Below are positions 1,018 through 32,976 of a DNA stretch of 39,986 nucleotides, piece by piece. The stretch lies in NCBI GenBank assembly GCA_040902285.1, contig JBBDXP010000009.1, forward strand, positions 1 to 39,986, written 5' to 3'. Position 1 is the stretch's first letter. Each line of letters opens with the position of its first letter. Source of the stretch: Candidatus Spechtbacterales bacterium (GTDB taxonomy: Bacteria; Patescibacteriota; Minisyncoccia; Spechtbacterales; 2-12-FULL-38-22). The notes under the pieces are model-generated. The model saw nothing but the letters and a program-made list of their open reading frames with translations, did not search any database and was not told the DNA's origin. Made by a program: the position numbers and the translations under genes.

Positions 1018-1680
1018 ATGGATACCAAGATTTTGTTAAAAAGCCAATTAAAAAATAACATCCCCGATATAAGGCCGGGACAGGTTATTCGCGTACATGA
1101 AAAAATACAAGAAGGAGACAAGTCCAGAACACAGGTTTTTGAGGGCCTAGTAATAGCCACAAAGCATGGCAGAGGGTTGGACGGCACATTTACCGTAAGA
1201 AAAATAGGCGCCGGAGGTGTAGGCGTAGAGAGAACATTTCCTATTCATATGCCGGCACTTGAAAAAATAGAAGTTTTAAGGAAAGAAAATGTAAGGCGTG
1301 CTAAACTATATTATGTAAGGGAGCAAATCGGCAAAAAGACAAAGAAGCGAAAGACAAAACTACAGGAACTGGTGTTTGATATGGGAGGAACCCAAGAAGA
1401 GATAAGCGACGAGCAACAAGAGACAGGCGACAAGGCGGAGGAGCAGACCACAGAGGAAAGCACAACCGAAACTAATGAAAGCGCGGCTGAGAAAGAATCC
1501 GCGGAGGCCGATAAGGAAATAAAAGAAGAAAGTTCTAAAACAAAAGAACCGGTTTCGTCCGAGGATAGCCAAGGTGAAATCAAGGTGGAAACAAAAGAAG
1601 AAGAGAAAAGTTTTAAAGAAAAAACAGAAGAATCTGTTGTGCCTGATGACAACCAGGGCGAACTCAAAAAAGGGGGATAA
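1018..1680 (+). CDS. rplS: 50S ribosomal protein L19 with ~105-aa acidic/Lys-rich C-terminal extension
   Basis: Starting at MDTKIL the sequence aligns to L19 ([12 protein letters not shown]..., [21 protein letters not shown]). It is followed by a low-complexity E/K/T-rich tail that ends in ...ELKKGG. The six-frame track begins the ORF at a TTG at 982; the ATG at 1018 fits the L19 N-terminus. Confidence 0.85.
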
Positions 1681-1711
1681 AAAATAAACTTTTTATTTTT
1701 GACAAATATAT

Positions 1712-1796
1712 GCCGCGGTGGTGGAATTGGTTTACACAGCTGACTTAAAATCAGTGCCCGAAAGGGTTGAGGGTTCGAGTCCCTCCCGCGGCACCA
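1712..1796 (+). tRNA. tRNA-Leu(TAA), type II with long variable arm, CCA encoded
   Basis: Manual cloverleaf: acceptor gccgcgg/ccgcggc, anticodon loop cttaaaa (anticodon TAA), long variable arm, T-loop ttcgagt, 3' gcacca. Confidence 0.85.
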
Positions 1797-1984
1797 CGAT
1801 CACGCTTGTGCGTGGTCGAAATTGAACGAAGTGAAATTTTGTGACGGGGGAAGCAAAGCAATCTGTTTTGCTTTGCGCGGGACTCGAAAGGCGGACTGAC
1901 CCCGCCGCAGACGGGGGAGGGAGCCCGGGCAGGAAGTGCTTAGCGATGACGAGCGAAGCGAGGCAGAGCTTAGCAACTTGACGC

Positions 1985-2007
1985 CGAGTCCCTCCCGCGG
2001 CACCACG
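1985..2007 (+). repeat. 23-nt direct repeat of the tRNA-Leu(TAA) 3' end, followed by a GC hairpin
   Basis: cgagtccctcccgcggcaccacg at 1776-1798 is repeated exactly at 1985-2007. Both copies are followed by a short GC-rich hairpin (cacgcttgtgcgtg / cggccacgcctgggcgtggccg). Confidence 0.8.
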
Positions 2008-2033
2008 GCCACGCCTGGGCGTGGCCGAATCAT

Positions 2034-2072
2034 GCGCTCGTAGCTCAACTGGTTAGAGCACACGGCTTATAC
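2034..2072 (+). pseudogene. 5' half (acceptor to anticodon loop) of a tRNA with a cttatac anticodon loop, truncated
   Basis: gcgctcg-ta-gctcaactggttagagc-a-cacgg-cttatac forms a perfect acceptor 5' strand, D-arm, anticodon 5' stem and loop. The sequence then departs from any tRNA 3' half. Confidence 0.6.
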
Positions 2073-2177
2073 ACGAGGATAGTGAGCGAAAAGAAAGGTT
2101 TACTTTCTTTTCCGAACGACGCAGTGTATATAAAATATAAATGGCAGCGAGGAAGAAATAGGAGTGTGCGCGTATAT

Positions 2178-2251
2178 GCGCGTGTAGCTCAGTTGGTTAG
2201 AGCACGGAGCTTATACCTCCGCGGTCCTTGGTTCGAGTCCAAGCACGCGCA
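2178..2251 (+). tRNA. tRNA-Ile(TAT)
   Basis: Manual cloverleaf: gcgcgtg/cacgcgc acceptor, D-loop agttggtta, anticodon stem cggag/ctccg with loop cttatac (anticodon TAT), T-loop ttcgagt. The tRNA is flanked by a 12-nt complementary leader and trailer (ggagtgtgcgcg ... cgcgcacactcc). Confidence 0.75.
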
Positions 2252-2292
2252 CACTCCTATTTCGACCGAGTGAACCATTTATATAAAATATA

Positions 2293-2328
2293 TCCGTGCG
2301 GTTCCAGGTTCAAGTCCTGGCGGGCGCA
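2293..2328 (+). pseudogene. 3' half of a tRNA that can pair with the 5' half at 2034-2072
   Basis: ccgtg-cggtt-ccagg-ttcaagt-cctgg-cgggcgc-a. The ccgtg segment pairs with cacgg of the 5' half, and cgggcgc pairs with gcgctcg through one G-U wobble. Confidence 0.55.
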
Positions 2329-2348
2329 CAGTAATATAATTACCATAT

Positions 2349-2423
2349 GCCTGGGTAGCTCAGTGGTAGAGCAGTGGCCTGAAGAGCCTCGTGTCGGGTG
2401 TTCAATTCACCCCCCAGGCACCA
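2349..2423 (+). tRNA. tRNA-Phe(GAA), CCA encoded
   Basis: gcctggg/cccaggc acceptor, anticodon loop ctgaaga, T-loop ttcaatt, 3' a-cca. Confidence 0.85.
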
Positions 2424-2428
2424 CACAT

Positions 2429-2502
2429 GGGCGCTTAGCTCAGTTGGCTAGAGCGACTCGTTTACACCGAGTAGGTCGGGGGTTCGAGCCCCTCAGCGCC
2501 CA
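2429..2502 (+). tRNA. tRNA-Val(TAC)
   Basis: gggcgct/agcgccc acceptor, anticodon stem actcg/cgagt with loop tttacac, T-loop ttcgagc. Confidence 0.85.
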
Positions 2503-2705
2503 CAAATCACATAGTGATTTTGGGCGTGGGGGCGAGAACCCAAGAAAGGGGTCGGGAAAACATTTGTTTTCCCGCCTGCGTGGCCGAAGCCACTTCGTCG
2601 AGGCGAAGGCCCGTGGCGGAACAATTAAAACCGAGGGGCTTCGGCCGTGAGCTCAGCCGAACGGTTTTAAGGAGCGAAGCGACGGGTTCTACGAACGCAG
2701 TGAGG

Positions 2706-2724
2706 GAGCCCCTCAGCGCCCACA
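2706..2724 (+). repeat. 19-nt direct repeat of the tRNA-Val 3' end
   Basis: gagcccctcagcgcccaca at 2486-2504 is repeated at 2706-2724, ~220 bp downstream. The intervening sequence is GC-rich with several UUCG/GAAG-type tetraloop hairpins. Confidence 0.8.
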
Positions 2725-2732
2725 GCAAAATC

Positions 2733-2803
2733 GCGGGTGTAGTATAGTGGTAATACACCACCTTGCCATGGTGGAGCCGAGGGTTCGATTCCCTTCACCC
2801 GCT
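2733..2803 (+). tRNA. tRNA-Gly(GCC)
   Basis: gcgggtg/cacccgc acceptor, anticodon stem ccacc/ggtgg with loop ttgccat, T-loop ttcgatt. The 3' end cccgctcaaa recurs at ~2851-2860 within a pair of small hairpins. Confidence 0.85.
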
Positions 2804-2921
2804 CAAAATTATGAAATAATTTTGAGCGAGGCTCGCTCATCTTCGATGAGCGGCCCGCTCAAATTGCAAAATAGCACATTGTGTGCTATTTTATTATTAG
2901 CACATTCAAAGGAGTAAATAG

Positions 2922-3113
2922 GTGGAAGAAAAAGCAAAAGACGGCTGCTCGCATGCATGTACTTGCGAATGTCACAAGAACGATAGTGGAGCCAAACATA
3001 TAGTTTCGTGTTGCTTTGAATGTGAAAGATGTCACCAGCAGATATCTGAAATGTCTGCTAGCAAACACTTTGCCCTTTGCCACCGTTTGTTCTTTGTTTT
3101 TCCACCGTACTAG
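2922..3113 (+). CDS. Hypothetical small Cys/His-rich protein (63 aa, GTG start)
   Basis: A GGAG RBS lies 8 nt upstream of the GTG. The product has 11 Cys and 6 His in 63 aa, arranged in CxC, CxxC and CC motifs. A palindrome (aatagcacattgtgtgctatt) plus a direct half-site repeat sit just upstream. Confidence 0.35.
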   Translation: MEEKAKDGCSHACTCECHKNDSGAKHIVSCCFECERCHQQISEMSASKHFALCHRLFFVFPPY

Positions 3114-3150
3114 AAAGGAGGAGCCGTGGATAATACGCAGCTAAAACAAA

Positions 3151-3176
3151 AAGCCGGATAAAACCGGCTTTTATCG
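3151..3176 (+). terminator. Rho-independent terminator
   Basis: aagccgg-ataaaa-ccggctt followed by tttat. Confidence 0.6.
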
Positions 3177-3241
3177 TATCTTGATTTTATTGTGTTGTTG
3201 GGATATTATTATGCTCAGTTATTTTGTTGCGGGAGAGGTAA

Positions 3242-3418
3242 ATGACAAAGGAAGAATTGGACCAAATTGTAAAAAGGGATATGCCCGGATGGTCTTTGGC
3301 GGAAGATTTTCAGCTTAACCACAGGACCATAGGAGATGATTATATATTCATTGTGCGGAAAGGGTCAGATAGAAAGGTTGCCACCATTTCTAATGGTGCA
3401 ATTAAAAAAGCCGGATAA
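3242..3418 (+). CDS. Hypothetical small protein (58 aa)
   Basis: Read manually from the sequence: a GGAGAGG RBS precedes an ATG at 3242, giving MTKEELDQIVKRDMPGWSLAEDFQLNHRTIGDDYIFIVRKGSDRKVATISNGAIKKAG*. The ORF is below the 60-aa cut-off of the six-frame track and is followed by a terminator. Confidence 0.35.
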   Translation: MTKEELDQIVKRDMPGWSLAEDFQLNHRTIGDDYIFIVRKGSDRKVATISNGAIKKAG

Positions 3419-3425
3419 AACATCT

Positions 3426-4474
<1,049 letters not shown>

Positions 4475-14841: not shown

Positions 14842-15213
14842 ATGCTGAACATAAAAAATTTATTTTATACAGTTCTGTTGCTTGTTTTAGTTGTTTCGGC
14901 CAATTCCGCGGATGCCGTTGTAGAAATGAACGGCGGAGGAGGAGGATCGGGGGGAACCACAATAAGATTGCCCAATCCTCTTAAGGCCTCTAATTTTAAC
15001 CAGCTTTTGGAGTCGGTGCTGAACCTGCTTTTGGTTTTTGCCATTCCTCTGTATGCCCTTATGGTGGTTATAGCGGGCTATTATTTTCTTTTCGGGGGGC
15101 AAAATCCGGCAAACAGAGTCAAATCATTGACTATATTTAAATATGCGACCATAGGCCTTGTATTTTTGCTTTTTTCCAGAGCTATTGTTGCACTTATACA
15201 AGGTTCGTTATAA
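14842..15213 (+). CDS. TrbC/VirB2-like pilin-family small membrane protein
   Basis: A signal peptide, a Gly-rich stretch and two C-terminal TM helices with FLFGGQNPANRVK, which is shared with the three downstream paralogs. Confidence 0.55.
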   Translation: MLNIKNLFYTVLLLVLVVSANSADAVVEMNGGGGGSGGTTIRLPNPLKASNFNQLLESVLNLLLVFAIPLYALMVVIAGYYFLFGGQNPANRVKSLTIFKYATIGLVFLLFSRAIVALIQGSL

Positions 15214-15300
15214 AATAAGATTAGGAGATGGGGGTGTGAGATACAAACATCCCTAATTTAAAAAGGTCGTTTTTATTCAAAAAATAAAAACAAAATATTT

Positions 15301-15789
15301 ATGAAAACAAAAACATTAACCAATGTATCAAGAATAGCGACGGTTGCATTTTTGTTGGCAGCGTTTTCCTTAATGCTTGCCGGAAATGTGTTGGCGCACG
15401 GAAACCACAGCGCCACAACAGACAAGTGTTCCTTAAGGGCGACTGTAAGCGCAACCGAGGCGAATGATTTGACCGGAAAGACCGTGGGAACGCACGCACC
15501 AAGCACAACGGGAGGCCTTGACCTCGTGGACCCGAATGTTGCCGGGGATCATGCCCTTATTTGCACATACGGACTTATTAAGTTCGTTACAAATGTTTTG
15601 CTTGTAACGGTGCTTGTGGTTGCGACATTGCTTATCGCTTACGCCGCATTTCTGTTTGTTACAGCGGGCCAGAGCCCGGAAAAAAGAGGCAAAGCACGAG
15701 ATTTTCTTATCTTTGCCATTGTCGGTTTGGTTATAGCAGCGGTAGCAAGCTTGATACCCACCATAGTTCGTGGAATTATCGGAGTGTAA
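15301..15789 (+). CDS. TrbC/VirB2-like pilin-family protein, paralog 1
   Basis: Signal peptide (…LAHG), a ~70-aa exposed region with two Cys, then two TM helices (AAFLFVTAGQSPEKRGKARDF). A terminator hairpin follows. Confidence 0.6.
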   Translation: MKTKTLTNVSRIATVAFLLAAFSLMLAGNVLAHGNHSATTDKCSLRATVSATEANDLTGKTVGTHAPSTTGGLDLVDPNVAGDHALICTYGLIKFVTNVLLVTVLVVATLLIAYAAFLFVTAGQSPEKRGKARDFLIFAIVGLVIAAVASLIPTIVRGIIGV

Positions 15790-15813
15790 TTGCTTTAAGC
15801 GATTCAATCCCAA

Positions 15814-15842
15814 AAACACCCCTTAGCGGGGTGTTTTTGTTA
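15814..15842 (+). terminator. Rho-independent terminator
   Basis: aaacacccc-ttagc-ggggtgttt followed by ttgtt. Confidence 0.7.
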
Positions 15843-15939
15843 TAGGGGTGAAAACGGGGTTGTATTGCAATCAATATTTGTGTAAAATAAAATTATCATT
15901 GATTTTATCGATTTTAAAATACTTATAAGTAAAATAATT

Positions 15940-16425
15940 ATGATAAAAATATTAAAAGCGCCAAAAGCCATTATTGTAACATTTGTTTTAGCGGGAATAC
16001 TTTTTGGTACGGTTCCCGGTGTGTTGGCTCATGGAACACACACAACGTCGTTAGCAGGCAGCGGGTATTGTCTGTTAAGAGTTACCGTTTCTGCCGGTGA
16101 CGCGCAACAACTTACGGGCAGATCTGTGGGTACGCACCCCGCCGGTTACAGGCTTAGTTTAACTGAGCCAACCATAGGTGGAGAACACGCGCTGATATGC
16201 GCCTACGGCCTTATCGGATTTATAACAAATGTGCTCCTTATATTTATACTTGTGGTTGCTGCGGCGTTTATCGCTTATGCCGCGTTTCTGTTTGTTACAG
16301 CGGGCGCCAATCCGGCCACCCGGACGAAAGCCAGGGACTTTTTCCTGTATGCCGTTATAGGTTTGATTGTGGCTCTTTTGGCAAGCCAGATCCCCACCCT
16401 TGTCAGGGGAATTCTCGGAGTATAA
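15940..16425 (+). CDS. TrbC/VirB2-like pilin-family protein, paralog 2 (divergent exposed region)
   Basis: Same architecture as paralog 1. The TM region is conserved and the exposed region has diverged (YCLLRVTVSAGDAQQLTGRSVGTHPAGYRLSL...). Confidence 0.6.
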   Translation: MIKILKAPKAIIVTFVLAGILFGTVPGVLAHGTHTTSLAGSGYCLLRVTVSAGDAQQLTGRSVGTHPAGYRLSLTEPTIGGEHALICAYGLIGFITNVLLIFILVVAAAFIAYAAFLFVTAGANPATRTKARDFFLYAVIGLIVALLASQIPTLVRGILGV

Positions 16426-16451
16426 AAATTAATTATTAAATAAAAATTAAC

Positions 16452-16928
16452 ATGACAAAAATTACGAAAATATCAAGAATTGTCATTGTTGCCTTCGCAC
16501 TTGCCGGTCTTCTTGTGGCACCAAGCGTGTTGGCGCACGGAAGCCACACCGCTACAACAAACAAGTGTTCCTTAAGGGCGACTGTAAGCGCAACCGAGGC
16601 GAATGATTTGACCGGAAAGACCGTGGGAACGCACGCACCAAGCACAACGGGAGGCCTTGACCTCGTGGATCCGAATGTTGCCGGGGATCATGCCCTTATT
16701 TGCACATACGGATTTATTAAGTTCGTTACAAATGTTTTGCTTGTAGTTATTCTTGTTGTGGCATCTCTGCTTATCGCTTATGCCGCATTTCTGTTTGTTA
16801 CAGCCGGCGGGAATCCGGCCAATAGAGAGAAAGCGCGTTCCTATCTTATATTTGCGGTTATAGGCCTTGTTGTTGCTGTTGTGGCAGCGCTTATTCCAAC
16901 CATTGTCAGAGGAATCATCGGGGTATAA
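16452..16928 (+). CDS. TrbC/VirB2-like pilin-family protein, paralog 3
   Basis: Carries a ~190-bp tract nearly identical to paralog 1 (16558-16745 versus 15421-15608). Confidence 0.6.
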   Translation: MTKITKISRIVIVAFALAGLLVAPSVLAHGSHTATTNKCSLRATVSATEANDLTGKTVGTHAPSTTGGLDLVDPNVAGDHALICTYGFIKFVTNVLLVVILVVASLLIAYAAFLFVTAGGNPANREKARSYLIFAVIGLVVAVVAALIPTIVRGIIGV

Positions 16929-24326: not shown

Positions 24327-25571
24327 CTAAAAATTTTCCGTTATTAATTTTCCACTTTCGGCTTCCATGTTTTTCCAGTCGGATTTTTCTCCCGCCAAGT
24401 GGCGCAAATATCCTGCGGCGGCTATCATAACCGCATTATCCGTAGACAATTTAATTCCCGGGAAAATGACGGATGTTCCGGGAACCTTTATAGGTATTTC
24501 TTTTTCAAAATTTTCTCTCAAAGTTTTGTTAGCGGCAACTCCGCCCGCCAATATAACTGTTTTTGCCTTATGGTCCTGAGCCGCTTTGGCTGTTTTGGAT
24601 ACAACAGAATCTATTACGGCTTTTTGGAAAGAGGCTGCTATATTTGCCGTTTGCTTAGTTTTTTCGTCTTCAGTCATTTTTTCAACAGTATATCGCACCG
24701 CGGTTTTTAATCCCGAAAAGCTGAAATTGTAATCTTTTGAATTAATCATTGGCCGTGGGAATTTGAAGGCCTCCGCATTGCCTTTTTGTGCCAATTTTTC
24801 TATTTCAGGTCCGCCCGGGAATCCAAGCCCCAGCAGGCGGGCCACTTTGTCAAATGCTTCTCCCGCGGCATCGTCCACCGTTTCTCCTAAAAGCTCGTAC
24901 TTTAGCCAATCCCTAACAAGTATTAATTGCGTGTGGCCTCCGGATATCGCCAGAGCAACAGCCGGAAATCGTATTTTGTTTGAAATTTGGGTTTTTGAAT
25001 TTGGGGCTTGTTTGGAAATTGAAAATTGGTCATTGGAAATTCCGTTATTCTCTGAAAGGAGAATAACGGCTATGTGTCCTTCCATGTGGTCTACGCCGAT
25101 TATTGGTATGTCCCACAGGCGCGACAGCGCGCGGGCGAAGTTTATGCCTACCCACAGCGCCGGTTCAAGCCCGGGCCCTTGCGTTACGGCTATCAAGTCG
25201 ATATCCGGCTTTTCAAGAGGAACAATCTTTTCTTTAAATTCGTTCGCTAAATCTTCATATCTTTCAAGTATTTCTTCTACATTTTGAATTTTGTCATTTG
25301 GAATTTGTTTGGAATTTGTTTCTTGGGATTTGGAATTCCCGTAATTTAATGAAAGTGTCTCGTAGAGCACTTTAACCAAATTACGGCTGTGTTCTCTTTT
25401 TGCCAGTCCGGGAACAACTCCTCCATATTCTTTATGCACGCTTAATTGCGATGAAATGACACTTTTATCTATTTTGTATTGAGGTTTTTCTAAAGACCCC
25501 GTGGCTTCAACAAGGGCAAGAGCGGTATCATCACAGGATGTTTCTATTCCCAATATTCTAATTGTTTTCAT
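24327..25571 (-). CDS. tsaD: tRNA N6-adenosine threonylcarbamoyltransferase TsaD (Kae1/YgjD) with two low-complexity insertions
   Basis: The MKTIRILGIETSCDDT N-terminus and the metal-binding His pair (DHMEGH) are present. The 414-aa length exceeds the usual ~340 because of N/S/K/Q-rich insertions encoded by the ggaatttg-type repeats at ~24950-25040 and ~25290-25340. The track ORF starts at an upstream TTG; the ATG at 25571 matches the family N-terminus. Confidence 0.8.
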   Translation of the reverse strand: MKTIRILGIETSCDDTALALVEATGSLEKPQYKIDKSVISSQLSVHKEYGGVVPGLAKREHSRNLVKVLYETLSLNYGNSKSQETNSKQIPNDKIQNVEEILERYEDLANEFKEKIVPLEKPDIDLIAVTQGPGLEPALWVGINFARALSRLWDIPIIGVDHMEGHIAVILLSENNGISNDQFSISKQAPNSKTQISNKIRFPAVALAISGGHTQLILVRDWLKYELLGETVDDAAGEAFDKVARLLGLGFPGGPEIEKLAQKGNAEAFKFPRPMINSKDYNFSFSGLKTAVRYTVEKMTEDEKTKQTANIAASFQKAVIDSVVSKTAKAAQDHKAKTVILAGGVAANKTLRENFEKEIPIKVPGTSVIFPGIKLSTDNAVMIAAAGYLRHLAGEKSDWKNMEAESGKLITENF

Positions 25572-25721
25572 TTTTTGTAGATTACTATATTGTTGTATGC
25601 TTAACAACTGAACAAAGTTGACTTATGACTATTTTTCAGTAAAATATATAGGTGGCACTGGTCCCATCGTCTTGCAGCCTGCTCTTTGTAATCCAAAATC
25701 AATTTGACGGAGCGAATTTTA

Positions 25722-25832: not shown

Positions 25833-25907
25833 GGTCCCATCGTCTAGTCCGGCCTAGGACGCCAGGTTTTCATCCTGGTAACACGGGTTCGAATCCCGTT
25901 GGGACCG
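25833..25907 (+). tRNA. tRNA-Glu(TTC)
   Basis: ggtccca/tgggacc acceptor, 3-bp D stem gtc/gac with loop tagtccggcctag (the E. coli Glu-like architecture), anticodon loop ttttcat, T-loop ttcgaat. The tRNA is flanked by a perfect 15-nt complementary leader and trailer (aataattaactttgc / gcaaagttaattatt). Confidence 0.85.
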
Positions 25908-26055
25908 CAAAGTTAATTATTTGAGATTTTAGGGAAACAAAAAAGCACGCTATCTGCCGCGTTGCTCCTCCTCGAAATAGCGCTATTGCTATTATTCCTT
26001 CGTCGTTGCGCCTTGCATCTAGCATACTTTTTTGTTTTCAAATTGATTTTAGATT

Positions 26056-26131
26056 GCAAAGAGCAGGCTAAGGCCTAGGACGCCAGGTTTTCATCCTGGT
26101 AACACGGGTTCGAATCCCGTTGGCTCTGCCA
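26056..26131 (+). pseudogene. tRNA-Glu-like pseudogene: 52-nt exact copy of the tRNA-Glu 3' portion joined to a non-matching 5' side
   Basis: 26072-26123 is identical to 25850-25901 of tRNA-Glu. The acceptor 3' strand (tggctct-g-cca) does not pair with the upstream sequence. The inverted repeat caaagagcaggct (26057-26069) matches agcctgctctttg (25676-25688), which sits next to a 13-nt tRNA-Glu 5' fragment (25660-25672). Confidence 0.6.
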
Positions 26132-27908: not shown

Positions 27909-27946
27909 TAACCTAGATTGATAGTACCTTGAAAAAGGAGGACGAA

Positions 27947-29842
27947 GTGGCCGAAGAACCTCAAATACAAAATACTCAAAAGAATTCTAAAGAATTCGAT
28001 GTACTTATCGCAATATCCACAGAACTGCGGGAAAAAGCGAACGGTATGTTAAGTGAGGATTTTGTCCGTCATATAGACGATATAACAGAAAAAGCGGATG
28101 AACTTGAGACCGCGCGAAAACTGCAGGCGCAGGAGGCGTCGAGGGATATCCAGCAAAATAAGCTGGCCTATCTTAATAAAATAAGAGAACTTAGCATAGA
28201 ACTAAATCAACTTAGCCGAATGCTGAGCGCTCTTAAGGAACAGCCCCCGCTGATGTCTGCCAAATTTGTTAGATTTGTCCGTTATCATGAAATAGAAGAA
28301 TACGGCAAGAAGGTAAAGATTCCAGTTGTGGATATTGTAAATTCCAGCGGTTCCAACGCGCGCGTTTTTGTGCATCCGGAGCTGGATGTTTCCAATGTTA
28401 AGTATGGACAGCGCGTTCTTGTAAGCGCGGGCAACATGACTATAATGGAAATTTTGCAAGAATTCGAGGTTATAGGACAAGAAGCATATGTCGAGGCTCT
28501 CTTGGAACCCGATTTTGAAGGTAAGCGTGTTTTGGTATCGGAAGGCCAGCTGGACATGAAAATAGTGGCGCATCTGTCCTCTTCCGTGGAAGATAAAGAA
28601 ATGGAAGAAGGCACTAGGGTTCTTGTAGATACAAAGACATCTTTGGTCGTGGAAGTGCTTCCCGAGCATGAGAGCCGCCGTTACATTGTGGGCGAAATCC
28701 CAAATGTCACTTTTTCTGATATCGGAGGCCTGGACGGCATTATCGCGAGGATAGACGAGCATGTTATATGGCCTATAATCTATCCCGATGTGTGGGAAAA
28801 AATAGGATTGGATTCTCCAAAAGGATTTGTGCTTGCCGGCCCGCCGGGTGTGGGCAAAACCATGATTGCCAAGGCGTTGGTAAACTATCTTAATGAAAAA
28901 CTCGAGGAAGTTCATGGCAAACCCGTACAGGGCCGTTTCTTCCACATTGCCGGACCTGAAATTCAAAACAAATATGTGGGCGAGACCGAACGCATTATGC
29001 GCGAGATATTTGCCCAGGCGGCAAAGAATGCTTCTCCGCTAAGCCCCTCCTTGGTATTTTTTGACGAAGCGGACGCGCTTTTCCCAAGACGCGGTTCGGG
29101 AGTCTCCTCCGATGTTGAAAAGACGAATGTTACCCAATTTACAGCCCTTATGGACGGCCTTGAGACCAGGAGCAACATTATAGTTGTTTTGGCGACAAAC
29201 CGCCCCGAACTTTTGGATCCCGCGGTCATACGGCCCGGGCGCTCGGACTTCACTGTGGATGTTCCGCGGCCCAACGAAGAAGCCGCCAAAGCCATTTTTG
29301 CCAAATACATAAGGCCCGAATGGGGGCAGATAAATCCTAAATACGATCAGGAGGTTTATATTCCAAAAGACAAAAAGGGCAATACGCGCGTTGATGACTC
29401 CGGAAGTGATATAAAACTTTACTTCGGACACAAGCCGCAAGAGGTTGTGGATTATCTTATCGCTAAAGCAACAGCGCGCATGTACGATCTGGACAATCCA
29501 AGAAACAAATTTATCAAACTCAAGTTTAGGGATTATTCGGAAAAAACTCTCCGTTACGGCGATTTTGCCTCCGGCGCTATGATTAAAAATATAGTGGATC
29601 GTGCCAAGAGATTTTCCGTTCATGATCATAAGGTTGGAGGTGAAGAACTCGGGATAACTCTCGTACACCTGTACAAAGCCATTGAAGAGGTCTTTTCTGA
29701 GCTTAGGGGTCCTTCCGGAGCCGGCGATTCCAGCACCTGGCTTGAAATAGAAGGCCATGTCCGCGGAAATAACGTTACGGGAATAGAATTTCTATCCAGA
29801 GATGCGGATGATTCTGACGATGATGAAGAGCCCATTTTATAA
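27947..29842 (+). CDS. ARC/Mpa-like (proteasome-associated-ATPase family) AAA ATPase
   Basis: An N-terminal coiled-coil (…LSIELNQLSRMLSALKEQ…) is followed by a tandem OB-fold inter-domain (…NARVFVHPELDVSNVKYGQRVLVSAGNMTIMEIL…). The single AAA module has Walker A GPPGVGKT, KYVGETERIMREIF, and Walker B/arginine finger VVLATNRPELLDPAVIRPGR. The C-terminus …DDEEPIL has no GQYL/HbYX docking motif. Confidence 0.8.
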   Translation: MAEEPQIQNTQKNSKEFDVLIAISTELREKANGMLSEDFVRHIDDITEKADELETARKLQAQEASRDIQQNKLAYLNKIRELSIELNQLSRMLSALKEQPPLMSAKFVRFVRYHEIEEYGKKVKIPVVDIVNSSGSNARVFVHPELDVSNVKYGQRVLVSAGNMTIMEILQEFEVIGQEAYVEALLEPDFEGKRVLVSEGQLDMKIVAHLSSSVEDKEMEEGTRVLVDTKTSLVVEVLPEHESRRYIVGEIPNVTFSDIGGLDGIIARIDEHVIWPIIYPDVWEKIGLDSPKGFVLAGPPGVGKTMIAKALVNYLNEKLEEVHGKPVQGRFFHIAGPEIQNKYVGETERIMREIFAQAAKNASPLSPSLVFFDEADALFPRRGSGVSSDVEKTNVTQFTALMDGLETRSNIIVVLATNRPELLDPAVIRPGRSDFTVDVPRPNEEAAKAIFAKYIRPEWGQINPKYDQEVYIPKDKKGNTRVDDSGSDIKLYFGHKPQEVVDYLIAKATARMYDLDNPRNKFIKLKFRDYSEKTLRYGDFASGAMIKNIVDRAKRFSVHDHKVGGEELGITLVHLYKAIEEVFSELRGPSGAGDSSTWLEIEGHVRGNNVTGIEFLSRDADDSDDDEEPIL

Positions 29843-29859
29843 AATCGCACATTCTTTTG

Positions 29860-29887
29860 ACCCCCGACTGCAAAGCGGGGGTTTTTA
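29860..29887 (+). terminator. Rho-independent terminator
   Basis: acccccg-actgcaaa-gcgggggt followed by ttttatttt. Confidence 0.75.
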
Positions 29888-29898
29888 TTTTAATAAAA

Positions 29899-29927
29899 TT
29901 GACACACGACCGCCAAACGACTATACT
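29899..29927 (+). promoter_or_regulatory. Sigma70-type promoter TTGACA-17-TATACT upstream of the dop-like gene
   Basis: ttgaca cacgaccgccaaacgac tatact. The 5'UTR attagtaccttaaaaaggagg shares the agtacctt(g/a)aaaaaggagg motif with the ARC and Lon-like leaders. Confidence 0.6.
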
Positions 29928-29962
29928 TAGTGCAATTAGTACCTTAAAAAGGAGGCATAAGC

Positions 29963-31579
29963 ATGCCTGACAAGCCGCGCAAGATAATAATTGGCGCTGA
30001 AACCGAATATGGAATATTTGCGACAGAAAACGGCCAAATACTTGATAATGAGGCCTTAGGACTTGTGAGAGAGGCCGAAAATGTAACCAAAGATTTTTTC
30101 CTTCGCCCGCTTGAGGGCATAGAAGATACCGAAGAACATGAAAATCTTGATTCTATGACTGATGAGGATTTTTTGCGCCAACCGGAAAGTTATCAAAGTT
30201 CCGGAGAAAGGCAGAGGCGCGGCCTTACCGGTTTTGTTCTCTCAAACGGATGCAGATTCTATGTTGATATGGGTCATCCGGAGTATTCAATTCCCGAAAC
30301 AACAAATCCCATGGATGCTCTTGTCGCGCAAAAAGCGGGAGACAGGATAGTTGAGCTTTGCAGAAGATTATTTGAGGAAAGATTAAAGAACGAAAATAGG
30401 AATATTTCGATTCGTTTGGATAAAAACAATAGCGACGGTAAAGGGAACAGCTATGCCGCGCACGAAAATTATTCTCTTACCCCCGAAACCTTTACGGAAA
30501 TAACTAATCGTTATGGGTCAAGAGAGTTGGAAGATATTGTGTTGAATTTTTTCACCACGCGCCAGATAGTGACAGGGGCCGGAAAGGTTGGATACGAGAC
30601 AGGAAGACCCGTTCCATACCAAATAAGCCAGCGTGCGGATTTTATTGAAAAGGAAAAAAGCTTAAACACGGTCGAAAAGAGGGGGATAATAAATTTGCGG
30701 GACCATTCCTATGCCGGATACGATGATGTCCGCAGATTGCATGTTATATGCGGAGACGGCAACATGTCCGAATTGTCTCTGTATCTTAAATTCGGCACAA
30801 CAGCGCTTATTTTAATGATGCTTGAAAGCGGATTTATACAGAGCGAAGGAAGTTCTGTTTTGATTCGCATGCAAAATCCCGTCCGCTCGTATAAAAATGT
30901 ATCAAGAGACCTTTCCCTGGGCCACAAGATATTTTTTGAGGACGGTTCTAAAAGGACCGCTTTAGCCATACAGGAGGAATTTTATTCTCTGGCCAAAAAA
31001 TTTACCGATGGAAACGATATTGATCCTATATGGCGCGATGTCGCAGACAAGTGGGAAAAGGTTTTGCACGGTCTTGCCGGGGAAAGAAATTCTGATGAAT
31101 GGGCCGGCAATCTGGACTGGGTTAAAAAAGAAACCATACTCAAACGGCATCAGGAGAAAAAAGGAGTTTCTCCGCTTCATCACACATGCCGCGCCGTGGA
31201 TCTTCAGTACCACAACATAAATCCCGAAAAAAGCATTTATTGGCGCCTGGCTGAAAGAGGAGACATACTTTTGTTTGCCACCAAAGCCGATATAGAGAGG
31301 GCTATTAATGAGCCACCTTCGGACACAAGGGCGTGGTTCAGAGGGCAAACCGTTAAACAGTTTAGAAATGTTCTGGACGGTATCGGCTGGCAATATATTA
31401 AATTTGCCGATAAATACATTTTTATGGGCAATCCATTTTCTGGTTCAAAAGAAGCAGCAGAGAGTATTTTTGCGGGGGTTTCTTCTCCGGAAGAATTTAT
31501 TGAAAGATTGTCGAAAGCAATTGAACGGAAGGAGAGTGGATTGGAGGGCTTTAGTGTCGGAGAAGGGTGGTTGATATAA
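29963..31579 (+). CDS. dop: Pup-ligase-family protein, Dop-like (depupylase/deamidase-type)
   Basis: The N-terminal IIIGAETEYGIF strand (Dop-type E-Y-G) is followed by a ~45-aa insertion before the conserved RFYVDMGHPEYS block, consistent with a Dop loop. The carboxylate-amine-ligase fold is retained at 538 aa. The Dop versus PafA call is an inference. Confidence 0.7.
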   Translation: MPDKPRKIIIGAETEYGIFATENGQILDNEALGLVREAENVTKDFFLRPLEGIEDTEEHENLDSMTDEDFLRQPESYQSSGERQRRGLTGFVLSNGCRFYVDMGHPEYSIPETTNPMDALVAQKAGDRIVELCRRLFEERLKNENRNISIRLDKNNSDGKGNSYAAHENYSLTPETFTEITNRYGSRELEDIVLNFFTTRQIVTGAGKVGYETGRPVPYQISQRADFIEKEKSLNTVEKRGIINLRDHSYAGYDDVRRLHVICGDGNMSELSLYLKFGTTALILMMLESGFIQSEGSSVLIRMQNPVRSYKNVSRDLSLGHKIFFEDGSKRTALAIQEEFYSLAKKFTDGNDIDPIWRDVADKWEKVLHGLAGERNSDEWAGNLDWVKKETILKRHQEKKGVSPLHHTCRAVDLQYHNINPEKSIYWRLAERGDILLFATKADIERAINEPPSDTRAWFRGQTVKQFRNVLDGIGWQYIKFADKYIFMGNPFSGSKEAAESIFAGVSSPEEFIERLSKAIERKESGLEGFSVGEGWLI

Positions 31580-32976
31580 TGAAAGACAGAGCCGTTGGTA
31601 TAGAAAATGAATTTGGCGTAATGCTTAAGGATGATTTTGGCAATTTTAGTTCTCAAGAGAACGAAATGCTGGCCATTAACAGCATTCCTCGTGAAAATTT
31701 GCCTCAAGGGGGTGGAATGTCCAACGGACGTTTCTGGCTTGCCAACGGAGGCAGTGTATACATAGACCTGGGCCATCCGGAATATGCTTCTCCCGAATGT
31801 CTCAGGTTGCGTGATCTGATTGCTGTAAGCCGCGCGGGAGAGAGGATTTGTTCCCGTATGTTCCATTACGCTGTTAGTAATGGAAGGTATTGGCAGCTTT
31901 TTAAGAATAATTTGGAAATTAGCGCCGAAGGAGGAGAAGGAAATTCGTTCGGATGTCATGAAAATTATCTCATTCACGGATATAAGCCGGAAGACGAGGT
32001 CATGCATACGCATCTTCTTCCCTTTCTGATAACTCGGCAGATATTGGACGGAGCGGGATGGTGGGCTTCGGACGGCAGATTTTCATTTTCTCAAAGAGCG
32101 TTGATTTTGGGCACCGTGGCGGCAATGGGTACCACGGAGGGGATAAGCCGTCCCATCATAAATCTTAGAGACGAGCCCCATATACAGAATAGGGAAGGAA
32201 TGAGCAGGTTGCATCTCATTTTGGGCGATGCCAACATGCTGGACTGGGCCTTGTATCTTAAATTCGGTACCACCTCCCTTGTACTGGCCATGCTTGAAGA
32301 AGGCCATATATTCAGGGATACGTGCCAAAATCCCATTGAAGCCATGCGCAGAGTGGCGTTTGATAAGACCGCGCGGAAACGGCTATTGAAATTTAGCGGG
32401 CGCGGGAAAATGAGCGCGCTAGAAGTGCAGGAATTTTACCTTGCCAAAGCCGAAAAATACGTCTCTATAACTGATTTTGCAAGCTACGAAAGCAGATTGG
32501 AAGCGCTCCAAACCGTGTGCATGTGGCGCGAGGCCTTAAATGCGATAAAAAATCGCGATACCGCATGGATGCTCGGACGGCTTGATTGGGCAACAAAGCT
32601 GTATCTTGGAAACAAAGAGTGGTCGAACAAAAAAAATTCGGGCGCTAGTGAAATGGACATCAAAAAACGCGTTGATATTCTTTATCACGCCGTGACCGAC
32701 ACAAGATTGCGCGACCGAATATATGCCAAGTGGCCGAACAGGCAGCTGGTCGGCGGACAGGAAATTGAGTATATGATAAATAATCCCCCACTGGACACCC
32801 GCGCGAGAATAAGGGCGTTGTTTATTGATCTCTGCTCAAAAAAACAATTCGGCACGGATAAGGACATATCTGTGAATTGGTCCAAAATAGTATATAGAGG
32901 CAAGGCGTTTAACTTGGGATACCCTTTAGACAAGGATAATCTCGAGGTTGAGAAACTTATCAGAAATCTCTTGTAA
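31579..32976 (+). CDS. pafA: Pup-ligase-family protein, PafA-like
   Basis: VGIENEFGVM (PafA-type E-F-G) with no loop insertion; SVYIDLGHPEYASPE; 466 aa. Its ATG overlaps the dop-like stop as TAATG, which suggests translational coupling. The track ORF begins at an upstream GTG (31567). Confidence 0.7.
   Translation: MKDRAVGIENEFGVMLKDDFGNFSSQENEMLAINSIPRENLPQGGGMSNGRFWLANGGSVYIDLGHPEYASPECLRLRDLIAVSRAGERICSRMFHYAVSNGRYWQLFKNNLEISAEGGEGNSFGCHENYLIHGYKPEDEVMHTHLLPFLITRQILDGAGWWASDGRFSFSQRALILGTVAAMGTTEGISRPIINLRDEPHIQNREGMSRLHLILGDANMLDWALYLKFGTTSLVLAMLEEGHIFRDTCQNPIEAMRRVAFDKTARKRLLKFSGRGKMSALEVQEFYLAKAEKYVSITDFASYESRLEALQTVCMWREALNAIKNRDTAWMLGRLDWATKLYLGNKEWSNKKNSGASEMDIKKRVDILYHAVTDTRLRDRIYAKWPNRQLVGGQEIEYMINNPPLDTRARIRALFIDLCSKKQFGTDKDISVNWSKIVYRGKAFNLGYPLDKDNLEVEKLIRNLL

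Follow-up and report, generated by a model that had tools for sequence, protein, structure and literature searches.

To our knowledge, bacterial tRNA genes are interrupted only by group I introns (rarely by group II introns), or are flanked by integrated elements. P4-like and other integrases target tRNA genes and restore the displaced 3′ part, and tRNA loops are, as Williams is said to have set out in 2002, classic integrase targets. tRNA introns of the archaeal and eukaryal type combine a bulge-helix-bulge motif (3-nt bulges, 4 bp apart) with a splicing endonuclease. The archaeal disruption of tRNA-Thr in Caldiarchaeum involves a 1.8-kb element with a recombinase (Sugahara et al., 2012; PMC3293823), and in Patescibacteria group I introns are frequent in tRNA genes, where they follow a U, end in G and leave a 7-nt anticodon loop (Nakagawa et al., 2026; PMC13011429). 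The latter survey started from Rfam group I hits, and therefore could not detect inserts of the kind described here. We examined a 39,986-nt stretch of a Candidatus Spechtbacterales bacterium (contig JBBDXP010000009.1; hereafter the window), in which a tRNA-Ile(UAU) gene is split in its anticodon loop around a second, intact tRNA-Ile(UAU). We found no prior description of these tRNA arrangements in the literature, nor of the pattern in bacteria. The explanation we favor, with a probability of roughly 0.6, is that a small structured repeat, here called the B element, entered a resident tRNA-Ile(UAU) as a two-copy composite, splitting it within the anticodon loop at TATA and bringing a replacement tRNA; the inner gene would now be the functional one, and the outer halves would be relics.

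The 5′ half of the outer gene lies at 2034-2072 of the plus strand (GCGCTCG-TA-GCTC-AACTGGTTA-GAGC-A-CACGG-CTTATAC) and provides the acceptor 5′ strand, the D arm, the 5′ strand of the anticodon stem and the loop CTTATAC, with the anticodon TAT at 2068-2070. The 3′ half, at 2294-2328 on the same strand (CCGTG-CGGTT-CCAGG-TTCAAGT-CCTGG-CGGGCGC-A), provides the 3′ strand of the anticodon stem (CCGTG), the variable region, the T arm, the acceptor 3′ strand and the discriminator A. When the halves were joined by hand at 2072/2294, ARAGORN called a 74-nt tRNA-Ile(tat), and the minimum-energy structure from RNAfold was a perfect cloverleaf in which all 21 stem pairs form (acceptor 7 bp, one of them G-U; D 4 bp; anticodon 5 bp; T 5 bp). 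The pairing of the halves, including the single acceptor G-U and CACGG/CCGTG, had been proposed in an earlier note on this DNA and stands, with the start of the 3′ half moved from 2293 to 2294 (T2293 is equally able to serve as loop position 38) and the distance between the halves revised from 220 to 221 nt.

Also as that note had claimed, a second and different tRNA-Ile(UAU) is intact between the halves (2178-2251, or 2178-2252 in the ARAGORN call; plus strand), at the tip of a long stem; it scored 71.6 bits with the Rfam tRNA model, the highest of any tRNA in the window. The outer and inner tRNAs differ at 24% of positions, with all differences in the acceptor and anticodon stems compensated within each gene, and the position pair 15/48 is A15/U48 in the outer tRNA versus G15/C48 in the inner one. 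The A15/U48 pair and the compensated stem differences indicate that the two halves come from one gene, which evolved as a functional tRNA separately from the inner gene. ARAGORN, run on the genomic sequence with the intron and pseudogene options that the note had recommended, reported the inner tRNA only and left the split gene unreported, although the hand-joined halves pair credibly; standard annotation thus overlooks the outer tRNA-Ile.

The nest might have been produced by misassembly, if reads from two strains with different tRNA-Ile alleles had been joined in error, and the window is probably metagenomic, with Logan contigs breaking within this tRNA cluster. We regard such an artefact as extremely improbable. 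Logan contig L144 (run SRR27977660) was 100% identical to window positions 1650-2383, across the whole nest, which argues against a chimera of a single assembler, and a collinear structure is present in a different organism in independent ENA and JGI (Joint Genome Institute) assemblies.

The 221-nt insert holds two copies of the B element, which we define by a closing stem (P1), an internal loop with 5′ GAGGATAGTGAGNG and 3′ CCGARCGWCGCA, and a distal stem (P2). Copy 1 (2068-2130, plus strand) is empty and fits this definition, with 84.8 bits (E = 8e-22) for our covariance model R1, a fold z-score of -4.1 and support from covariation. Its closing stem is TATACAC/GTGTATA, the 5′ strand of which includes the outer anticodon; its internal loop reads 5′ GAGGATAGTGAGC / 3′ CCGAACGACGCA, and its distal hairpin is GAAAAGAAAGG-TTTA-CTTTCTTTTC. 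Copy 2, which extends over 2127-2292 in total, is degenerate and carries the inner tRNA at its tip; R1 did not detect it, and it is recognisable through alignment to L004 alone, a contig from a related genome with the same composite. Its 5′ arm (2140-2177, plus strand; AATGG CAGCGAGGAAG AAATAGGAGTGTGCGCGT ATAT) is collinear with the canonical B copy 2 of L004, and its 3′ arm (2252-2279, plus strand; CACTCCTATTT CGACCGAGTGAA CCATT) was delimited by the same alignment and by two inverted repeats, I1 and I2. The 13-nt direct repeat TATATAAAATATA is exact and occurs on the plus strand at 2127-2139 and 2280-2292 (the first copy was placed correctly in the earlier note, the second at 2279), and nowhere else in the 40 kb, where no such pair is expected by chance. 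Its first copy also starts the long stem that brackets the inner tRNA (inverted repeat I2), and the TATA that ends its second copy (2289-2292) repeats the one in the split anticodon loop (2068-2071).

Inverted repeats (19/19 bp and 15/18 bp) dominate the region. The segment 2155-2173 is perfectly complementary to 2245-2263 (inverted repeat I1, 19/19 bp), the upstream arm is a complementary copy of the tRNA 3′ end, and 2034-2328 folds with z = -7.6 relative to shuffles into a long stem with the inner tRNA as its cap. These repeats, the arm complementary to the tRNA 3′ end and a similar palindromic architecture around tRNA-Glu (see below) would also suit an origin in place with no mobile element, by local triplication or by template switching at tRNA hairpins, after which the first copy would have lost its 3′ half and the last copy its 5′ half, leaving the palindromic arms as by-products of fold-back replication. 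We find this origin decidedly unlikely, since the 24% difference between the inner and outer tRNAs and their compensated stem changes are those of long-separate functional genes, not of recent local copies, and since the B core sequence is conserved in other genomes at unrelated loci, a pattern that local rearrangement leaves unexplained.

Across the alignment of B elements, an asymmetric internal loop with tandem G.A is conserved between P1 and the distal stem P2, and P2 can accommodate large cargo. This loop reads 5′ GAGGAUAGUGAGNG / 3′ CCGARCGWCGCA and can be drawn as G15-C, U16-R, tandem G.A/A.G and G19-C. In P1, the TATA part is constant, while the three innermost pairs covary (CAC/GTG, ATT/AAT, ATT/GGT, ACC/GGT, AAT/GTT). 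We observed that 99.2% of alignment cells were paired and that six pairs were changed on both sides; none of 500 shuffles did as well, and with slid partners as controls the pairing fell to 41-62%. Owing to its G-U pairs, the structure is specific to the strand co-transcribed with the neighboring genes, and the orientation relative to transcription was the same at all four independent loci. Taken together, the G-U pairs and the constant orientation point to action of B on the transcribed strand, as RNA or as single-stranded DNA. B encodes no protein.

Canonical B copies scored 75-90 bits with R1, and a search of 130 kb of Patescibacteria DNA with this model found no further copy. A metagenome scan with the query TATANNNGAGGATAGTGAGNGAAAA found one copy between two protein genes with no tRNA nearby (L132:120-181), and two copies after a tRNA-Thr(cgt), one of them inside the distal hairpin loop of the other (L129:525-650, the same as L131:3150-3275 on the minus strand of L131), between this tRNA and a downstream protein-coding open reading frame (ORF). 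A further match, in L130, was rejected as a chance match inside a coding region. Scanning genome contigs with the 15-base core GGATAGTGAGNGAAAA gave 120 chance matches, none of them with the second half of the motif or beside a relevant tRNA, as this core is too unspecific; viral-contig scans gave one chance match for the B core and none for the core of the A family introduced below. In Rfam 15, at gathering and at permissive thresholds, the insert matched no family and the tRNAs alone reached threshold, nor did any intron family match L004, L129, L132 or L002. The B core was also considered as a hammerhead or a K-turn, but both were dropped, since the core sequences and spacings that they require are missing and Rfam does not support them.

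Miniature inverted-repeat transposable elements (MITEs), such as the Correia elements of Neisseria, and repetitive extragenic palindromes with their mosaic elements (REP/BIME) are small, non-autonomous palindromic repeats that are co-transcribed with genes. B is similar in being a short, non-coding hairpin repeat that is dispersed intergenically, has TA-rich flanks and is co-oriented with transcription. It differs in that the closing stem varies with compensation, so that the pairing of P1 is conserved while its sequence is not, and the conserved part is an asymmetric internal loop instead of terminal inverted repeats; the copy number in the DNA examined is also low. As for a target-site duplication, TATA flanks every B copy, but it is palindromic and part of P1, and a filled/empty pair is available for tRNA-Ile only.

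We compared the locus with its orthologues, as the earlier note had suggested, using contigs that encode homologues of ribosomal protein L19. The gene belongs to a tRNA cluster between rplS and trpS, Leu(taa)-Ile(tat)-Phe-Val(tac)-Gly, the order of which is conserved in relatives. In seven of these (L003, L135, L136, L137, L138, L140 and L142), a single uninterrupted tRNA-Ile(tat) occupies the same cluster position; their clusters are mostly compact, with inserts beside other tRNAs in L138 and L140. The nested form was also found in one other organism, a related member of the Patescibacteria represented by L004 (ENA) and L005/L128 (JGI). Pairwise alignment of the window with L004 showed a collinear composite, with cassettes that are ~72% identical and contain indels: in L004, an outer 5′ half ending in CTTATA is followed by a B1 of ~60 nt, a TATATA-rich spacer, a B2 with an intact tRNA-Ile in its distal stem, and TATAT. 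The 3′ half of the outer gene is absent there, which indicates that in this genome the outer gene is dispensable and decaying. The uninterrupted orthologues in seven relatives, together with the same composite and a decayed outer gene in a second genome, support one of the two alternatives raised by the earlier note, namely that a tRNA gene was disrupted by a segment carrying another tRNA.

This situation is reminiscent of the archaeal cases, in which a tRNA gene is likewise broken in a loop, with fragments beside a complete gene of the same identity (the tRNA-Thr of Caldiarchaeum, PMC3293823; the split tRNAs of Nanoarchaeum), and in which filled and unfilled states are likewise found among relatives. 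Unlike the archaeal fragments and introns, which are processed by a bulge-helix-bulge splicing endonuclease, the insert described here is a 220-bp non-coding structured repeat in a bacterial host, and it contains the replacement tRNA itself.

By identity of L19 and of the pseudouridine synthase RluA, the window, L003 and L004 are about equidistant (57-67%; ~58% for RluA between the window and L004), so that the nest is either old and was lost in L003, or was acquired more than once. The anticodon stem CGGAG/CTCCG is common to the inner tRNAs of the window and L004, versus CGAAG in the orthologues L003, L138 and L140 and in the outer half of L004, and this difference in stem sequence weakly suggests that the inner tRNA travels with the cassette. 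The outer tRNA is 73-77% identical to every other tRNA-Ile, and the inner one 80-82% identical to those of L003, L138 and L140. At every related locus, the tRNA-Ile at this cluster position has a UAU anticodon in place of the lysidine-modified CAU that is usual.

For the other alternative raised by the earlier note, a nested or intron-containing arrangement, no known splicing signal was found in its support. Using cmscan on 1400-3200 with permissive filters and E up to 10, we obtained no match to the group I covariance model RF00028 and none to a group II model of Rfam; the 221-nt insert has no credible protein-coding ORF, and the reverse transcriptase that usually goes with the domain V/VI RNA of group II introns was not seen among the ORFs of the window. 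The insert ends in AAAATATAT (...ATATAT) before CCGTG, with no terminal G near the 3′ junction, and reading the junctions by eye revealed no bulge-helix-bulge; a three-way junction formed by the anticodon stem, B1 and the long stem was seen instead. The resemblance to the group I tRNA introns of Patescibacteria (Nakagawa et al., 2026; PMC13011429) therefore lies in the phylum, the anticodon-loop target, the length of ~200 nt and the fact that tRNA finders miss both, and the difference in the missing RF00028 match, the missing 3′ G and the presence of a whole tRNA within the insert.

These results speak against a still functional outer gene whose 221-nt insert would be a new kind of bacterial tRNA intron, excised under guidance of B by a structure-specific endonuclease or by self-cleavage and followed by RtcB-type ligation, with the inner tRNA as a second product. 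Several observations are nevertheless in its favor: the outer halves are perfectly co-adapted (21/21 pairs plus A15:U48), B is a conserved, strand-specific structure that is always co-oriented with transcription, and group I introns are frequent in the tRNA genes of this phylum (PMC13011429). Moreover, the TATA present at both junctions (2068-2071 and 2289-2292) means that excision in any of several registers would give a valid 7-nt loop, CTTATAC or CTTATAT. To these stand opposed, besides the missing splicing signals, the same composite in L004 in an outer gene that lacks its 3′ half and is dispensable, the identical anticodon of the tRNA within the insert, which makes the outer gene redundant, and the occurrence of B in plain intergenic DNA, where there is nothing to splice. 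On balance, we consider splicing of the outer gene unlikely.

The insert can also be compared with the intervening sequences of bacterial 23S rRNA, which are cut out by RNase III and not re-ligated, and the fragmented rRNA still functions. They too are extended stem-loops inserted at a loop of a structural RNA gene; in contrast to such an rRNA, a tRNA cut in its anticodon loop could not decode.

In our preferred explanation, disruption of the resident tRNA-Ile by the two-B composite, insertion would have occurred at the TATA formed by the anticodon UAU and A37, and the TATA of this anticodon loop coincides with the TATA flanking every B element. The inner gene would be the working tRNA, presumably freed from a polycistronic transcript by RNase P and RNase Z, possibly aided by RNase III at the long stem that brackets it. 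The outer halves would not be rejoined and would be relics that may still look intact because the disruption in this lineage is recent. As this tRNA is the sole reader of AUA at this locus, an insertion could probably have survived only if it came with a replacement tRNA.

Several points weigh against this explanation. The outer halves are flawless, with all 21 pairs formed and the conserved nucleotides intact, and if the insertion were ancestral to the window and L004 (~72% identity of the cassette, ~58% of RluA), the intactness of the outer gene would mean that it is under selection and so has a function. The orthologues in L003, L138 and L140 are slightly closer to the inner tRNA (80-82%) than to the outer one (76-77%), so identities do not settle which copy was the resident one, and the L19 and RluA distances are too weak as well. 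The B alignment comprises six copies from four genomes, and in three of them the cargo or the hairpin tip was removed by hand. Finally, no transposase, integrase or reverse transcriptase was seen among the ORFs of the 40-kb window, and no insertion machinery was identified.

The tRNA-Ile nest is not the only such locus in the window; the other three, like the recurring structured repeat that makes up the insert, had escaped the earlier note. ARAGORN called seven full-length tRNAs in the 40 kb, and four of the seven loci have loop inserts, giving at least four interrupted tRNA loci (Ile, Leu, Val and Glu). The Leu and Val inserts are located in the T loop and are both accompanied by a duplicated 3′ end; the Glu insert lies in the D loop and has a nested tRNA-Glu. 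tRNA-Leu(taa) (1712-1796) is followed by a 188-nt structured insert of a second element family, A, and then by a 45-nt copy (1985-2029, 89% identical) of the tRNA 3′ part from T-loop C56 together with the trailer hairpin, in which the differences are compensatory; the insert segment GGGACTC (~1881-1887) pairs with the start of the duplicated fragment. tRNA-Val(tac) (2429-2503) is followed by 202 nt and then by an exact 19-nt copy of its 3′ end (2706-2724), and the start of this insert (TGGGCGTGGGGGCGAG) is nearly complementary to the tRNA-Val 3′ end. We did not assign the Val insert to family A: the layout is the same, but our covariance model R2 did not detect it and no homology was detectable. 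An intact tRNA-Glu(ttc) (25833-25908) has a 13-nt 5′ fragment (25660-25672) on one side and a 3′ fragment (26070-26131) on the other; the two fragments together resemble a further tRNA-Glu gene with an interruption in the D loop. The Glu insert has terminal inverted repeats of ~35 bp and a three-way junction and folds with z = -11.8; the outer 3′ acceptor strand mismatches the outer 5′ fragment and pairs with the end of the inverted repeat, which gives a weak Rfam tRNA match at 26060-26128. Small inserts in loops or arms of tRNAs come in a third type as well: the outer 5′ half of L004 (1838-1900) contains a 20-nt perfect palindrome, CCTGCCTGCCGGCAGGCAGG, within the D arm.

Family A, with its target-matched helix, accompanies B. 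In related Patescibacteria, A inserts are found behind seven different tRNA isoacceptors: after Leu-taa and Phe in L004 (1648-1830 and 2244-2428), after Cys, Leu-gag and Ser-cga in L002 (1793-1935, 4580-4762 and 4892-5094), after Leu-gag in L133 (2992-3148) and after Val-tac in L138 (3756-3904), with a further insert in L140 (4139-4391). The A copies scored 58-122 bits with R2, their core helices covary, and no Rfam family matched them. All have a precise 3′ junction at T-loop position 56/57 and a downstream duplication of 10-60 nt that sometimes runs through the terminator, and in all of them a segment of 7-10 nt just 5′ of a conserved GAAAGG forms pairs with the beginning of the duplicated fragment, its sequence being matched anew to every tRNA (for example GGGACUC/GAGUCCC, GGAAUC/GAUUCC and GAGAGGAAUU/AAGUCCUCUC). 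The A copy behind tRNA-Leu in the window is closer to the Phe copy of L004 than to the Leu copy of L004, which indicates that family A has moved between tRNA types. Hairpin loops of 11 nt with the pattern GARYNNNGYGA recur (GAACGAAGTGA, GAGCGAAGCGA and GAGTTTGTCGA; window 1824-1834, 1951-1961 and 2672-2682) and are also found in the A elements of L004; they may represent a motif that the inserts have in common for protein binding or tertiary contacts. We dropped group I, HDV-like (hepatitis delta virus) and RNase P-like RNAs as candidates for the A core, which has neither the sequences nor the spacings that they require and no support from Rfam, and we rejected a guide of the TnpB/omega-RNA type because the intact upstream tRNA copy would itself be a target.

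The T-loop duplications of tRNA 3′ ends bring to mind integrases. As in tRNA-targeting integration, the target is a tRNA loop and the insert replaces the disrupted part, and the Leu and Val 3′ duplications start in the T loop as attachment (att) sites do. On this basis, the nest could be the scar of an integrase-mediated element (a prophage or an island) that entered the tRNA-Ile anticodon loop, carried a tRNA and later shrank to ~220 bp; tRNA loops being classic integrase targets would fit, as would a large serine recombinase element that adjoins the neighboring tRNA-Gly in L004. This origin appears very unlikely to us. Integration at an anticodon loop normally gives a restored tRNA and one displaced 3′ fragment, whereas here a 5′ and a 3′ half flank a complete, foreign tRNA-Ile; the same ~220-bp composite is found in two genomes with no element body; and the insert is a structured repeat that also occurs alone. 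The arrangements further differ from those of integrases in that the window has no recombinase gene, the inserts are 130-220 bp, and the duplications are 10-60 nt and include a locus-specific trailer.

A broader idea, which we put forward as tentative and on the whole doubtful, is that the Ile nest is one face of a hitherto undescribed class of protein-less structured elements of Patescibacteria that home into tRNA loops by base pairing. Each element would be closed by a helix with the flanking target, in A elements through the 7-10 nt segment that is re-matched per tRNA, and would bring or regenerate the displaced part, whether a whole tRNA (anticodon and D loops) or a 3′ end (T loop). If true, such homing would imply RNA-guided or ribozyme-based insertion, for example by partial reverse splicing onto a pre-tRNA followed by DNA copying; the alternative implication would be a new bacterial pathway that excises such inserts from tRNA.

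The window itself is a chromosome segment of the Patescibacteria (candidate phyla radiation, CPR), with L19 homologues from uncultured members of that phylum. Its housekeeping genes include a pseudouridine synthase, L19, tryptophanyl-tRNA synthetase (TrpRS), FtsH, GyrA, TsaD, RecG, a class I aminoacyl-tRNA synthetase of the Ile/Leu/Val type, a ClpX/HslU-like ATPase and pupylation genes. The L19 gene (982-1680) has a product of 232 aa with a long Lys/Glu-rich C-terminal extension, L19 in relatives being 170-260 aa. A proteasomal-type AAA ATPase with OB domains is followed by two genes of the Pup-ligase family (27929-32976), which looks like a pupylation module in a Patescibacteria genome, and a tandem array of four small genes with T4SS-pilin (type IV secretion system) / TrbC-like domains lies at 14842-16928. 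The TsaD gene (24327-25607) encodes 426 aa, whereas a typical TsaD has ~340 aa, and the match to the Pfam model in three separate stretches suggests that it carries an insertion relative to the typical protein. In L004 (within 2500-4407), tRNA-Gly(gcc) is preceded, 70 nt upstream, by a second copy of its first 14 nt, and directly downstream of this tRNA, on the opposite strand, lies an element with a large serine recombinase, an AAA_25 ATPase and a primase-like gene.

That tRNA genes serve as insertion targets and that the damage is compensated is a known theme; what is new is that the insert is a small, protein-less structured repeat in a bacterium. For the organism, this means that non-coding structured inserts are tolerated in three kinds of tRNA loop (anticodon, D and T) of a reduced CPR genome, each insert being offset by a nested tRNA or a duplicated 3′ end. 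For annotation, it means that tRNA finders are blind to split genes and to spare fragments. For RNA discovery, the two covariation-supported motifs lie outside Rfam, and the target-matched helix of one of them hints at guide-based targeting. Should the outer gene prove to be spliced, a new bacterial pathway of RNA processing would be at hand. As it stands, the locus provides a bacterial counterpart to the archaeal disruption models for the evolution of split and intron-containing tRNAs.

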